This document shows positions 25,397 to 29,813 of a stretch of DNA of 64,000 nt, in pieces (within the stretch, counting starts at the first letter, position 1; every line of letters begins with the position of its first letter). The notes under the pieces are model-generated. The model had not been told where the DNA came from. It made no database searches and saw nothing but the letters and a program-made list of their open reading frames with translations. The stretch comes from a virus: positions 32,001 to 96,000 of IMG/VR virus record IMGVR_UViG_3300045988_176782; one strand, given 5' to 3'. The position numbers and the translations under genes were made by a program.

Positions 25397-28300
25397 TCAA
25401 TATTTTACTAGAGAGAACATGTTTCCATCATTATCGCGGAGCACATTCAAAGTCATACTAAATCATTTTTCTTGCGTTGTATCGCTACTACAACTCTTAT
25501 AATTTCTTATAAGATGAGACTATATCATTCATCAATTTCTTGATTTAACTGCTCTTTCGAGTGCGCTTACACCCTACTTCCTTACGGAATAGTCGTTGAA
25601 CCTTAATCCAAAAATTTCCATTTATATCCAAAAGTGGTGATTCGTTTTCCTTCACATACCGCACGAATATTACGACCAGCCGCCGTAGGTTTGCCTAAAG
25701 CTCTTGCCGCCTCATTGGCTGAAGAAAAAGTGGCTATTAAATTTCCTTCTAAATCATATTGTCCAGTTTTTCGTCCGTGTGTTTTCTTGGCATTAACTGG
25801 AATAACACAATTATCTTCTTTATATTTATAAATTGAGTCTTTATAATGCGTAATCTCCCCACGACAATTCTGCGAAACAGCTTGATAGGGTATACCCATT
25901 TTTCTTGCGCATTCTTTTATAGATGCGAAACTTTCAATAAAAATCCCTTCTAAATTATAACGAGAAACTTCACGTTTTAAGCTACAAGTATTAGCTATAT
26001 ATTCTACTGCTCCTCCTGGTTTAATATTATAACCATATTGAGGATTTTGCGTTTTATACAATTGAATATAATATTTTTCTTTATCATTTAAATCTTCATA
26101 AGGGACTTCTTCTAAAATTTCTACAATAAAATTTTCATAACCATACTTTTCAAAAGCTCGCATAAGTGCCGTACAATTTCGATACCCTTTTCCGTCTTTT
26201 CCTGCACGAATTTTTAAAGACTCAATTGTTTTACCGACATATTTTTTATTAGATGGAGAAGTATAGCAATAAATAAAGCCATGATTTTCTTTTGGACGCT
26301 GTTTTAATAATTCTGTATTCATATTTTCCTTTCTTGGATTCTTGGCTGCTGATTGCCCAATCCTATTTTATGTTACTACAAATTTTTATATTTGTCAAAT
26401 TATTACTAATTTGTTGAGTTAAATAGGCTCTAAGGGGATTCCAGCAATTAAGCAGTTTTTACTTCCACATTTAAGCCGTGACTTTTCGGATTAGGTTCGT
26501 GGAAGGATCGCCTTCTGCCTGCATGGTTAAGGTTACTTCGCTCAACATCTTAGCCTTGTTGATGATGAATTGGAAAGCTTCATCCTTACCAGTGGCTTCA
26601 GAACGAATTAGAGCATCGCCTACAACCTTGTCATTTTTATTATCGTTTCCTAAACTTCTTATATTTTCATATAAGATTAGACTATATCTTCACACAAATT
26701 ATTTGAGTGTTCGGCACTAACCTCAAGGAATTTAGAGGTATTTAGTCGTTGAGCCTTGAGCAAGTTTTCCATTTAAATCCATAAGCCGTATTGGTATCTT
26801 TATCTAATACTTTACGAATTAAACTTGTTTCCTTTCCGAGACTTTTCGCCGCGGCAGTAATGGAAGGGAAAACTTGGATAATCTTCTTTGTTATTGGGTC
26901 AATTTGTTGAATTTGCTTCGCAGTGTTATTATATTTTTTAACCATTAAAATTTCTGTGCATTCCCAACGATAACCATAAGCACTTTTTAATTCATTACGA
27001 CAACAACGACGAATTGCAGAACGTTCACCGTTCACTGCTCTCGCCGCTTCTGCTAAAGAAGGAAAAGTGTTTATCAATATCCCGTCTAGAGAAAATTGCT
27101 TAATCTTTTTTTCACTATTATCTACAATTCTTTCATGAATAGGGAATCTATTTAATTTTTCATAGCTCCAACAAAAATTATATTGGGTATATACTTTATT
27201 TTCTAAACAACCTTGAAAAGTTTGAGGAACTGTATTAAAAGCTTTTGCAACTTCTGATATATTTTCCCACTCTCTTATAAAAGAACCGTTTTGACTTGAA
27301 TATTGATATACTTTTTTACGTTCTTTAGACCAGCCTTTTTGACCACCATCGGTTAAATTATAACCATTTGGCGCTAAAGTATTAAATAATTGAATATACT
27401 TTTTTTCAGCCTAGTCTAATTGGTTTTTTGGGACTTCTGCTAAAATTTCAACAGTAAAATTAGAAAAGCCATATTTTTGAATTGCTTTATAAAATAAATC
27501 ACACCCTTTATAGCATTTTCCATTATGGCCCGCTCTTTCTTGCAGAGAACGAGTTGTTTGCCCAACATAAGAAGAACCAGATGGAGATGTATATTTATAA
27601 ATAAATCCATAACCACTCTTTGGTCGTTTTTCCATTTTAATACTCCTTGGTTGCTGATTGCCGGCCATTTCAGGCTACGGTTTCCAGCAATTCACCGAAT
27701 TGATTTGCATTTTTTAACTCCCCGCGTGGAGCCCTACAATGTTGAGGAAAGGTTCCAGGGAATGTAGAAGGACTAATAACGATTTCAGAAGCGGTGCCTT
27801 CTTCAACTACTTCCTCTTCCCAGAAGAAACGAATCTTAGTGATTTCGGTGGCGGCATCAGCAAAAGGCTTAGTGCCAGTCTTTAAAGTAACAGTGAATTT
27901 CGCGGGATCGCTGCCATCATTAGTTACAGTATCAACTTCGCCAGAGCCACGTAGGCCGTGAGTCATGTCAACCCACTTAAACTTGAAGCCAGCCTTTACA
28001 ACATCCTCACCAGGGAAGTTGTTCTTACCGCCCATAGTCTTCCCATCACCCATTGGGAAGGTAAAGGTTTCACCAACCTTAAAGTTGCGTTCAGCGTTCT
28101 TATAAATAGTAACAGTGTGTTCGTCAGTGGACTTATTATACATCGCACCACCCATGATAATGCGTAGTTCTTCCCAAGATACTACAGCATCTTCTAGGGT
28201 TACATTGATGTCCTTACCATCATTATGTTACGTTTATGCCTTATCATAAACTCTTATAATTTCTTATAAGTTCAGACTATATCTTCATCTCACATGGCCG

Positions 28301-29813
28301 TGAGAGGCTGGTGCAGGAGAGCAAGGTTTTCGCTCCCTCTTAGTCGTTGGACCTTCCGTAAATACGGCTCGGCTGCTGATTGTCTTCGGCATTATCCGGT
28401 CAGAGTTCCCAGCAATTCTCCAGCTTTTTAACTTAATGTCGCCATTAAGGGGACCTATGGTAAAATTAAGTCCCAAGTGACCAATTTAGGATTCATTGTG
28501 TTCCACATAGTTCGCTAATCTATGCGCGGATTTCTCCTGCTTATGATTTCTCATAATGTTCAGACTATATCTTCATCTTTAGATGGGTCTAAAGAGTCCC
28601 CTGTTTCGTGAGGCTTCTCACTACAATTAGTCGTTGAACCTTTCTCTTTTGGCCTTAAGAGATTTGGCTGCTGATTATCCAATCTTGATTTATGTTACTA
28701 CAAATTTTTACATTTGTCAAATTATTACTAATTTGTTGAGTTAATCAAGCTCTAAGGACGTTCCAGCAATTAAGAGGATTTTTCCGTTGAGGCAAACCTA
28801 AGTATGTATGTCAACCCCAACCGCCCTGAGCTGAAACATTTTCAGCAGTAGTTTCTACAGTAGAAACCTTTAGGGTATTTAAATAAAGTACAATATCGCC
28901 GGCTTTGATGTCTCCTTCGTCGGCTAGAGCTTGGAAATAAACGTTAGCTACTTCCTTAATCAATTATGTTACGATTGAACCTGTTATCAATCTCTTATAG
29001 TTTCCTATAAGTTCAGACTATATCTTCATCCGATTTCTCGGAGTCTTGCACAGGAGAAGCAGGATTTTCTTCTCGCTTAGTCGTTGAGCTTTCTAAAAAG
29101 TATTTCCAAACATATCCTCCCGCAGTTTTTCGCTTGCCACGAACACATTGCGTAATAGAACTACGACAAGTTCCAGTCTATTCACTTGCCTCACGTTGAG
29201 AATCATAAACTTTTAACAAATGGCCCTCTAAATCATATTGTGCTACTTTTATTTTAGACGCTTCCGCACCTAAAGGCTGAACCTTTTCAACCCATTCTTT
29301 TACACTTTCTTCACGATGTTTCCCAGAAAAACTATGTTTAGTATTTTCAGAATAAGTAGTCCATTCTAAATTATTAACACAATTATTAGATTTATTAAAA
29401 TCTTTATGATTTACAACAGGATAATTATTTGGATTACTAATAAAAGTAGAAGCTATAATTCTATGAGCACGATATAAATGTCGAGATAAAGATACTAATA
29501 AATAACCATCTTTGTCTTTCCATTGTGAAACAAGTTCTTTTGTGCTTTTATCACGAATTTGCCCATTCTCACAAGCTTCATAATTATTATCAACGGGAAC
29601 TGTTTTCCACATTATTTATTGTCTCCTTTTTAGCTTAGTTGCTGATAGCCCATTGTTGCATCTTATTATTTTTTAAACATTCACGCTTGCATTTGCACGC
29701 TTCGTTGTAGTAAATAAGCTTTAGGGCGTTCCAGCAATTCACAAGAATTGTCAGTAAGAATTGCTCCTTACAGTGGCATTTCTACCATAACGTTCAAAGA
29801 TGTTAATGGCCAT
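25397..29813 (-). CDS. major tail (tube) protein in six exons: join(29813..29784,28960..28814,28493..28469,28220..27750,26631..26481,25463..25397), 296 aa
   Basis: The spliced product is continuous: MAINIFERYG|IKEVANVYF...SAQGGWG|NPKLVTWD|YGKDINVTLEDA...STFPGT|YKVVGDALIRSEATGKDEAFQFIINKAKML...GDPSTNLIRKV|FSMTLNVLRDNDGNMFSLVKY*. Every junction has U at -1 and G at the intron end. Two 5' sites have in-frame alternatives (29772, 26493). No TAG in any exon. Confidence 0.75.
25464..26480 (-). mobile_element. group I intron with GIY-YIG endonuclease (tail tube intron 5)
   Basis: On the - strand: P AATTGCTGGAATCCCC (~26434-52), Q AATCAGCAGCC (~26341-53), R GGTTCAACGACTAT (~25589-602), S GAATGATATAGTCTC (~25517-31). 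Omega-G is at 25464. The 5' site is 26481 (P1 AAGU/GCUU) or 26493. Confidence 0.75.
25603..26322 (-). CDS. GIY-YIG homing endonuclease (239 aa)
   Basis: GFIYCYTSPSNKKYVGKT...RAGKDGKGY...YIQLYKTQNPQYGYN is a GIY-YIG domain. C-terminal repeats (ARKMGIPYQAVSQN, ARALGKPTAAGRNI, FGYKWKF) look like I-TevI-type DNA-binding modules. It lies inside the intron. Confidence 0.85.
   Translation of the reverse strand: MNTELLKQRPKENHGFIYCYTSPSNKKYVGKTIESLKIRAGKDGKGYRNCTALMRAFEKYGYENFIVEILEEVPYEDLNDKEKYYIQLYKTQNPQYGYNIKPGGAVEYIANTCSLKREVSRYNLEGIFIESFASIKECARKMGIPYQAVSQNCRGEITHYKDSIYKYKEDNCVIPVNAKKTHGRKTGQYDLEGNLIATFSSANEAARALGKPTAAGRNIRAVCEGKRITTFGYKWKFLD
26632..27749 (-). mobile_element. group I intron with GIY-YIG endonuclease (tail tube intron 4)
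   Basis: P GAATTGCTGGAAACC (~27675-95), Q AATCAGCAACC (~27650-60), R CTCAACGACTAAA (~26742-55), S GTGAAGATATAGTCTAA (~26679-95). P1 pairs exon GGAACCU with GGGCUCC (one mismatch, U-G at the splice site). Confidence 0.75.
26742..27635 (-). CDS. GIY-YIG homing endonuclease (297 aa, 1 in-frame TAG)
   Basis: ATG 27635 follows AAGGAG. GFIYKYTSPSGSSYVGQT...RAGHNGKCY is GIY-YIG. TAG at 27411 joins it in frame to the AYGYRWE / AYGFKWK DNA-binding half. The gap was checked and has no TAA/TGA. Stop TAA 26742-44. Confidence 0.8.
28221..28468 (-). mobile_element. group I intron, ORF-less, 248 nt (tail tube intron 3)
   Basis: P AATTGCTGGGAAC, Q ACAATCAGCAGCC, R GGTCCAACGACTAAG, S GATGAAGATATAGTCTGAAC. 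P1 is perfect: exon GGGACU pairs with GGUCCC (U-G at the site). The intron ends ...AACGTAACATAATG. Confidence 0.85.
28494..28813 (-). mobile_element. group I intron, ORF-less, 320 nt (tail tube intron 2)
   Basis: P TTAATTGCTGGAACG, Q ATAATCAGCAGCC, R GGTTCAACGACTAA, S GATGAAGATATAGTCTGAAC. P1 pairs exon GGGGU with GCCUC. Its P5/P6 periphery is near-identical to intron 25464-26480. Confidence 0.85.
28961..29783 (-). mobile_element. group I intron with HNH endonuclease (tail tube intron 1)
   Basis: P GAATTGCTGGAACG, Q CTATCAGCAAC, R AGCTCAACGACTAAG, S GATGAAGATATAGTCTGAAC. The intron ends CGTAACATAATTG. P1 pairs exon UGGU with GCCA, and P2 is GTAAG/CTTAC. An alternative 5' site lies 12 nt downstream (29772). 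Confidence 0.75.
29013..29612 (-). CDS. HNH homing endonuclease (199 aa, 1 in-frame TAG)
   Basis: VVNHKDFNKSNNCVNNLEWTTYSENTKH is an HNH motif. TAG at 29178 continues the frame into ...GGYVWKYF... The ORF runs through R into S, ending ...DEDIV* at TGA 29013-15. Confidence 0.8.

Follow-up and report, generated by a model that had tools for sequence, protein, structure and literature searches.

The tail tube gene of an uncultured phage described here is split into six exons by five group I introns, and its third exon, only 25 nucleotides (nt) long (AATCCTAAATTGGTCACTTGGGACT), lies between two short introns that contain no endonuclease gene. The gene, whose product is a YomU-type tail tube protein, is found on the minus strand of a stretch of 64,000 nt (the window) that corresponds to positions 32,001 to 96,000 of the virus record IMGVR_UViG_3300045988_176782 in IMG/VR. 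It is very probable that this micro-exon is a true coding exon flanked by two independent self-splicing group I introns, introns 2 and 3, which entered the gene through separate insertions. The positions and lengths that a first-pass annotation had assigned to exon 3 and its flanking introns (25, 320 and 248 nt) proved exact on the minus strand (Table 1). Exon ends were placed by exact sequence search on that strand, and in silico splicing joins the exons into a coding sequence (CDS) of 873 nt that forms a single open frame for a protein of 290 amino acids (aa).

Exon 3 encodes the octapeptide NPKLVTWD together with the first base of a Tyr codon, and this octapeptide is invariant in all 15 aligned homologues. 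Across both junctions the tract AQGGWG-NPKLVTWD-YGKDINV is invariant or nearly so in an alignment of 16 sequences that includes intron-less homologues, and the spliced product runs gap-free against these homologues over either junction. The frame through exons 2, 3 and 4 requires the 25 nt in order to remain open, and skipping them leads to a frameshift and a stop after seven codons. With a slash marking the point of ligation, the predicted junctions are GGTTGGGGT/AATCCTAAA (GGGGT/AATCC) between exons 2 and 3 and CTTGGGACT/ATGGTAAGG (GGGACT/ATGGT) between exons 3 and 4, and a transcript lacking exon 3 would read GGTTGGGGT/ATGGTAAGG in a product 25 nt shorter. The second of these junctions exists ready-made in the relative L001, a 4.7-kb assembly with exons about 92% identical to those of the window, in which a sequence resembling intron 2 ends in ...CACAATG and is followed by AATCCTAAACTGGTCACTTGGGACT/ATGGTAAGGACATC with no intron 3; the allele reads ...TGGGACT/ATGGTAAGG..., exactly as predicted for the junction of exons 3 and 4, and intron 4 is absent from it as well. 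Alleles that are contiguous at predicted junctions are also available for intron 1 (L086, with TATGGT/ATTAAGG), intron 4 (L003 and L086 in addition to L001) and intron 5 (L008). Both junctions of exon 3 are fixed, in that a slide by one base would break the observed spliced sequence. For exon 4, an end at ...TTTCCT/ was considered and rejected, and the end at ...GGAACCT/ was set by the homologue alignment and the intron-less alleles.

In a search of 4 kb, introns 2 and 3 both match the group I model of Rfam, RF00028, above its gathering score of 50 bits, the former at 28540-28866 with 78.5 bits (E 1.9e-19) and the latter at 28253-28478 with 71.9 bits (E 1.8e-17). These match limits differ from the true intron boundaries because the model stops at P9 and, in the case of intron 2, because a hairpin within exon 2 was taken as P1. 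The P1 helix predicted for intron 2 pairs GUUGGGGU in exon 2 (28821..28814) with the guide GCCUCAAC (28793..28786) over 8 base pairs (bp), with a U.G pair at the splice site, and the GGGGU/GCCUC helix of the first-pass annotation corresponds to its inner 5 bp. In intron 3 the exon strand GGGACU (28474..28469) pairs with the guide GGUCCC (28455..28450) to form a P1 of 6 bp, again with U.G at the site, and the earlier statement that this helix takes 6 of the 25 exon nt is borne out, as is the more general proposal that a genuine coding exon is flanked by two separate group I introns, which possess a P1 and a U.G pair apiece. To these helices a P10 pairing can be added for each intron: nt 1-8 of exon 3 (AAUCCUAA) pair at seven of eight positions with UUAGGUUU (28801..28794), which is located just 5' of the P1 guide of intron 2, and nt 1-9 of exon 4 pair over 9 bp with UUUUACCAU (28465..28457) of intron 3. 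Both introns end in ...AAUG with the expected terminal G (28494 in intron 2, 28221 in intron 3), and the phage-type core motifs AAUUGCUGG, CAGCAGCC, ACGACUA and GAUAUAGUC are common to the two. In intron 2 the J3/4-P4 motif AAUUGCUGG is at 28771..28763 and the P7 strands are ACGACUA (28634..28628) and GAUAUAGUC (28571..28563); in intron 3 the P7 strands are at 28347..28341 and 28283..28275, and the P2 hairpin has a GCGA loop.

Unconstrained folding, controlled by shuffled sequences, recovered P1 and most of the core helices (z of -4.0 for intron 3 and -3.0 for intron 2), and the minimum free energy fold of intron 3 gives P1, P2, P3-P6, P8, P9 and P9.1. Within the lineage of intron 2, which is represented by three sequences only (the window, L008 and L065), compensatory double changes are seen in 10 of the 73 predicted pairs, in P3, P5, P6, P9 and P9.1; the P8 hairpin sequence has been wholly exchanged between copies, and at position -7 of P1, where a Gly codon has its third base, covariation gives U-A, A-U and G-C in three genomes. 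One hairpin per intron is found between P7 and P3' (AGGGAGC...GCUCUCCU in intron 3 and GUGAG-AAGC-CUCAC in intron 2), and a second helix is not evident there; extra helices P7.1 and P7.2 in this position are the mark of subgroup IA2, the phage type exemplified by Twort orf142-I2 and T4 td (PMC3984707). Introns 2 and 3 are probably phage-type group I introns that are IA-like and related to the introns of orf142 of phage Twort. The description of the two introns as devoid of open reading frames (ORFs) holds in substance, in that they contain only ORFs of 63 and 40 aa, the longer of which has no Pfam match, and neither intron has an ORF with a recognisable endonuclease domain.

The predicted pairings suggest how the micro-exon might be used. 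The 5' splice site of intron 2 would be chosen by the 8-bp P1 formed with the last nucleotides of exon 2, and its 3' splice site would be aligned by P10 on the first eight nucleotides of exon 3, while the 5' splice site of intron 3 would be chosen by the 6-bp P1 on nt 20-25 of exon 3, with P10 formed on exon 4. Removal of both introns would be needed to restore the 290-aa frame; in an unspliced message UGA is the first codon of intron 2, and reading into intron 3 meets a stop after four further codons. The upstream P10 and the downstream P1 divide exon 3 without overlap, leaving 11 nt between them, and from these non-overlapping uses we infer that introns 2 and 3, both presumably self-splicing, could act independently and in either order with none imposed; transcription order would give intron 2 a head start. 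The first-pass annotation had pictured the two ribozymes as folding and reacting almost back to back; this picture is somewhat overstated, since P10 and P1 occupy separate parts of the exon and the sequence itself imposes no order. The cognate P1 duplexes have calculated energies of -10.2 and -9.8 kcal/mol and the non-cognate ones -4.2 and -6.5 kcal/mol, the last of these being that of GUCCC in the intron 3 guide with GGGGU, where exon 2 ends, a pairing which offers a route to exon-3 skipping. Such skipping is expected only as a minor side reaction, one that destroys the frame, and is probably rare.

A database search with the spliced protein gave 2259 relatives, of which the top full-length matches are 60-69% identical to it at 100% coverage, tagged with PF27173 and uninterrupted, and about 120 intron-less homologues carrying PF27173 (YomU_Tube) align to it at 100% coverage. 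It matches PHROG 2729 (E 2e-24), and its homologues from cultured phages bear the annotation tail tube or major tail protein, all those found being intron-free. The YomU assignment is drawn from PHROGs and from precomputed Pfam tags; a local Pfam scan of the spliced protein gave no match with a copy of Pfam that did not contain the PF27173 model. No full-length protein in the protein database is more than 69% identical to the spliced product, from which it follows that the database holds no assembled spliced transcripts of this phage. Removal of the predicted introns from L008, L086 and L003 also yields ORFs of 873 nt, which differ from the window copy by 34-40 synonymous and 7-13 non-synonymous changes, and the resulting ratio of non-synonymous to synonymous polymorphism (pN/pS) of 0.06-0.09 points to strong purifying selection on the spliced tail tube product. 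Directly downstream of the gene is an intron-free tail tube paralogue (24560-25300, minus strand), which also belongs to PHROG 2729 and has GGWHNEPRVIWED at the equivalent position, and this tandem pair is present in most relatives.

Close relatives, with exons about 93-97% identical to those of the window, differ in which introns they carry. The window has intron 1 with an HNH ORF, intron 2, intron 3, intron 4 with an ORF, and intron 5 near the 3' end of the gene. L008 and L085 have introns 1, 2 and 3 and an ORF-less intron 4 (303 nt in L008), and their 3' end is without an intron. L003 has an ORF-less intron 1, a different intron with a GIY-YIG gene 6 nt upstream of the intron-2 site, intron 3, no intron 4, and at another site near the 3' end an HNH intron; L086 has no intron 1, an ORF-less form of the upstream intron of L003, intron 3, no intron 4, and intron 5. 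The contig of L001 begins within intron 2 and so leaves intron 1 uncovered; it has the same 3' HNH intron as L003. Introns 2 and 3 therefore vary independently, with both present in the window, L008 and L085, intron 2 alone in L001, and the alternative upstream intron together with intron 3 in L003 and L086.

This second upstream lineage (L003 2718-3719, L086 8474-8794) follows GGCGGT, and in combination with intron 3 it delimits a micro-exon of 31 nt. In L065 and L072, at about 47-49% protein identity, the intron-2 lineage occupies the same site as in the window and is followed by a micro-exon of only 10 nt (AACCCGAAAT; L072 3732-3741, L065 3175-3184) and then by another intron, inserted 15 nt further 5' than intron 3; L066 (4409-4424) combines the site at -6 with this same downstream intron and has a micro-exon of 16 nt. 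The 10-nt micro-exon is fully used, nt 1-5 in P10 and nt 6-10 in P1. Four insertion sites, after GGCGGT, TGGGGT, AAAT and GGGACT, thus fall within 31 nt and give rise to micro-exons of 10, 16, 25 and 31 nt. A GIY-YIG enzyme of about 260 aa is encoded by the L072 intron at the intron-2 site (site b), homologous enzymes are encoded by the introns of L003 and L079 at site a, and the L065 intron at site c encodes an HNH enzyme. Given these endonuclease genes at the same or adjacent sites in relatives, introns 2 and 3 of the window, being ORF-less, look as if they derive from mobile introns or travel as passengers of them, and they would have come to lie 25 nt apart through separate events of homing or insertion, the target DNA being near-invariant among phages. 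The host segment, GGWGNPKLVTWDYGK, is the most conserved part of the YomU-family tail tube gene, and it is near-invariant at the DNA level among intron-less alleles, a degree of conservation that homing elements would be expected to exploit.

The site of intron 1, which follows codon 10, likewise holds an intron in L037, L039 and L056, which have tail tubes about 47% identical to that of the window and introns of about 820 nt. The introns of L037 and L039 at this site end in CGTAACATAATTG, as does intron 1 of the window, and the end of the L056 intron is similar (GTAACATATTG). In another gene of L065, two group I intron matches (7336-7571 and 7601-7875) are 30 nt apart and may enclose a further micro-exon. 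Most of the 80 relatives in IMG/VR are intron-free, and scans for the pattern of the junction between exon 3 and intron 3 returned no more than two contigs from IMG/VR and two from metagenomes, so that the exact arrangement is rare in the collections.

Other readings of the region have been weighed. The first-pass annotation had itself named one, a single larger or twintron-like intron spanning 28221-28813 in which the 25 nt are intron sequence, and the closeness of the two cores and the displacement of the Rfam limits from the proposed junctions are the only points in its favour. It is almost certainly wrong, as each intron has a complete P1-P9 set and its own terminal G, the 25 nt are conserved coding sequence whose loss shifts the frame to a stop after 7 codons, and the intron-3-less allele L001, with exon 3 fused to exon 4, together with the invariance of NPKLVTWD in the homologue alignment excludes both a single large intron and a twintron. 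It is also very improbable that the gene has become a pseudogene in decay whose introns are dead, with the tail tube supplied in its place by the intron-less paralogue at 24560-25300. Two of the three intron endonuclease genes are broken by stops, there is a C instead of U at the 5' splice site of intron 5, and the neighbouring paralogue belongs to the same PHROG, all of which would suit such decay; but the exons of four diverged genomes rebuild a 290-aa ORF, the low pN/pS of three relatives argues against a pseudogene, and in the Rfam search the scores of the ribozyme cores are those of group I introns of full length. The pair of paralogues is moreover found in intron-free relatives, where a second weak match is situated just downstream at most loci, so that it does not represent a replacement.

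Obligatorily ordered or cooperative splicing, with the two ribozymes unable to fold on the 25-nt exon at the same time, gains from there being merely 11 nt between the upstream P10 and the downstream P1, and interference is plausible in the relatives whose 10-nt micro-exons use every nucleotide; it is nevertheless doubtful for the window, where the two pairings are separate, and splicing intermediates of Twort orf142, which has a 23-nt exon, reportedly pointed to no strict order. There is little likelihood that exon-3 skipping or incomplete splicing serves as a programmed throttle or timer of tail tube production. The pairing of the intron 3 guide with the end of exon 2, the documented skipping between group I introns in Twort orf142 and in a SIOphi gene, where it is reportedly dominant or near half, and the retention of the tandem arrangement in at least four genomes would all be compatible with such a device, yet a product lacking exon 3 is out of frame, stops after 7 codons and has no obvious function, relatives that lack one or both introns show the arrangement to be dispensable, and each guide pairs with its cognate exon more strongly than in the non-cognate combinations, by 3-6 kcal/mol. 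In a broader version of functional coupling, the segment encoding GGWGNPKLVTWDYGK would be a multi-lineage homing hot spot, with four sites in 31 nt and at least four lineages, at which adjacent ribozymes depend on one another; the 25-nt case of the window would be a relaxed stage, possibly with skipping or delay tuning the supply of tail tube. This view is tentative and on balance unlikely, and if it were true the ribozymes around the 10-nt exons would need splicing in a fixed order or in cooperation. Independent self-splicing around a true exon, with separate insertions, remains the preferred reading, and three observations weigh against it. The cross-pairing at -6.5 kcal/mol is not negligible, and skipping could be more frequent than is assumed, as in the SIOphi gene; all four copies of intron 3 (window, L003, L008 and L086) are near-identical and provide no covariation support of their own; and no version of intron 3 carrying an endonuclease was found among the relatives.

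The nearest precedent for a short exon between two such introns is orf142 of Staphylococcus phage Twort, later recognised as a tail tube gene. Its reconstruction (AF132670, guided by the intron-less gene of phage G1) gives four exons (345, 41, 23 and 20 nt) separated by three introns (325, 252 and 286 nt), in agreement with the deposited CDS in four pieces (359..1650) and its 142 aa. Like the window gene it has several closely spaced short group I introns, and the 25-nt exon has its direct counterpart in exon 3 of orf142, which measures 23 nt and is flanked by the 252-nt and 286-nt introns. The introns of the two phages have in common CAACGACUA, GAUAUAGUCUGAAC, a P9 GAAA hairpin and CGUAACAUAAU(U)G, although they can be aligned only in part, at about 74-84% over 45-86 nt in core and terminal segments. 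The host proteins have no detectable similarity (BLASTP E = 18), the Twort tube being a 142-aa myovirus protein and that of the window a 290-aa YomU-type protein; the Twort gene has three introns and the window gene five, three of them with endonuclease ORFs, and the window gene, unlike that of Twort, comes with a natural allelic series in which each intron may be present or missing. For orf142, skipping of an exon is documented in the work of Landthaler and Shub (1999, PNAS 96:7005) as cited in PMC3073962 and PMC11878797, and the questions of splicing order and skipping that the first-pass annotation raised, while legitimate, are accordingly not new. Nucleotide searches revealed no near relatives among cultured phages: megablast of the 3-kb region against INPHARED phages gave nothing beyond a 47-nt core, and sensitive blastn of each intron gave only short core matches to known phage introns, about 45-160 nt long and covering 19-49% of the query.

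Similar configurations are known elsewhere. Among the Bastillevirinae, a small extra exon lies between two introns of group I within phiNIT1's gene for ribonucleotide reductase (Weglewska et al., 2025; PMC11878797), and an internal exon of a SIOphi gene is skipped according to nanopore cDNA, reportedly as the dominant or near-half product (PMC11878797). Introns of this subfamily colonise only genes for nucleotide metabolism, polymerases and terminase (PMC11878797); these are replication and packaging genes of Bacillus myoviruses, whereas the window has a structural gene of an uncultured phage. In organelles, micro-exons between group I introns include those at Ophiostoma rnl-576/577, fungal exons of 3 bp and a placozoan cox1 exon of 1 nt (PMC12308204, PMC5436844). 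As in the window, very short exons flanked by self-splicing introns are evidently viable there, but those cases are mitochondrial and often maturase-helped, and exons shorter than a P1 helix force an order of splicing, whereas the phage-borne exon of 25 nt is long enough for independent recognition. Phage group I introns of the T4 td and nrdB type are inserted in conserved coding sequence and carry GIY-YIG (e.g. I-TevI) or HNH ORFs in peripheral loops, ORF-less derivatives being common and T4 having one intron per gene; we know of no tandem group I introns and no micro-exon in T4. The spacing of 25 nt resembles the distance from cleavage site to insertion site of I-TevI, with no evidence of a connection here. 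The searchable literature yielded no report of introns in YomU-type tube genes and none of a phage gene with more than three introns, absence from that literature being no proof. Since a phage tail tube gene with a 23-nt exon enclosed by two short group I introns was already described in 1999, the window provides a new example and not a new kind; the micro-exon alone is unsurprising to a specialist, and moderate interest comes from the five introns, the intron density of the whole window, the cluster of four insertion sites and an allelic series that extends to a 10-nt exon.

Table 1. Exons and introns of the split tail tube gene in the window.
Feature	Position	Strand	Description
Whole split gene	25397..29813	minus	YomU-type tail tube protein; six exons and five group I introns
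Exon 1	29813..29784	minus	30 nt, MAINIFERYG; supported by homologues (MAVNIFERYG/IKEVANVYF) and by intron-1-less L086
Intron 1	29783..28961	minus	823 nt; HNH/NUMOD endonuclease ORF
Exon 2	28960..28814	minus	147 nt, IKEV...AQGGWG; the final 8 nt (28821..28814) supply the exon side of intron 2 P1
Intron 2	28813..28494	minus	320 nt; group I, without endonuclease ORF
Exon 3 (micro-exon)	28493..28469	minus	25 nt; AATCCTAAATTGGTCACTTGGGACT
Intron 3	28468..28221	minus	248 nt; group I, without endonuclease ORF
Exon 4	28220..27750	minus	471 nt; first 9 nt in P10 of intron 3
Intron 4	27749..26632	minus	1118 nt; GIY-YIG/NUMOD ORF broken by a stop
Exon 5	26631..26499	minus	133 nt
Intron 5	26498..25464	minus	1035 nt; 239-aa endonuclease ORF, assigned to GIY-YIG
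Exon 6	25463..25397	minus	67 nt including the stop codon

The remaining introns of the gene are longer and give weaker matches to RF00028. Intron 1 scores 36-38 bits on its 3' core, and its ORF (29612..29178, minus strand) matches the Pfam families HNH_3, NUMOD4 and NUMOD1, each below the gathering cutoff; the ORF ends at a premature TAG, beyond which a NUMOD-like peptide runs on in frame. Intron 4 has partial matches of 22 and 38.9 bits, and its ORF (26742-27668, minus strand) matches NUMOD1 and I-HmuI_NUMOD-like above threshold and GIY-YIG below it (18.8 bits against a cutoff of 22.6), a stop dividing it into a catalytic part of 85 aa and a NUMOD part of 111 aa. To judge from these interruptions, the ORFs of introns 1 and 4 look like decaying homing endonuclease genes. 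Intron 5 scores 29.4 bits on its 3' core and has an intact-looking ORF of 239 aa (26322..25603, minus strand), with NUMOD1 and I-HmuI_NUMOD-like above threshold and SegE_GIY-YIG below it (17.9 bits against 25). The 5' splice site of intron 5 (26499/26498) follows C and not U (...CCTTCCAC/GAACC...), so that its P1, CUUCCAC with GUGGAAG, would have C-G at the cleavage site in place of the near-universal U.G; the junction was set by the intron-less L008 (GATCCTTCTACTTTCAGC) and by the requirement for a terminal G, and L086 has the same sequence. The P3-P6 region of intron 2 (28664-28782), which includes a long extension of P5, matches the corresponding region of intron 5 (26342-26460, minus strand) at 87% identity across 119 nt, and intron 3 resembles the end of intron 1 at 75% identity through its final 131 nt. 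The five introns of this gene thus have modules in common, which suggests recombination or intragenic spread.

Group I introns are not confined to the tail tube gene. Five further signals are located elsewhere in the window, at 4327-4570 (plus strand) and at 22064-22359, 31805-32104, 40423-40577 and 42913-43156 (all minus strand), which brings the number of group I intron signals in the 64 kb to at least ten. One of the five sits in the tape-measure gene, and another is the 3' end of an intron carrying an ORF of 319 aa with zinc-ribbon/DUF723 character (40483-41442), which is adjoined by a similar ORF of 308 aa (39106-40032). Three tRNA genes, Leu-CAA, Lys-TTT and Ile-TAT, are found at 56678-57190 on the plus strand.

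Five group I introns within a phage CDS of 873 nt represent an unusually dense arrangement, as does the window as a whole. One consequence is that gene callers fragment this tail tube gene: the called gene P0001 starts at an ATG within an intron and continues into NPKLVTWD, and the 25-nt exon is invisible to such programs, as are the exons of 10 to 31 nt in relatives. How neighbouring ribozymes influence one another is a question that has so far been addressed mainly in Twort orf142 and in a few Bacillus phages. The allelic series described here, in which each of five introns is present or absent, two alternative upstream introns occur and the enclosed exon measures 10, 16, 25 or 31 nt, could allow cross-talk between adjacent group I introns, the order of their splicing and the skipping of the exon between them to be measured directly.

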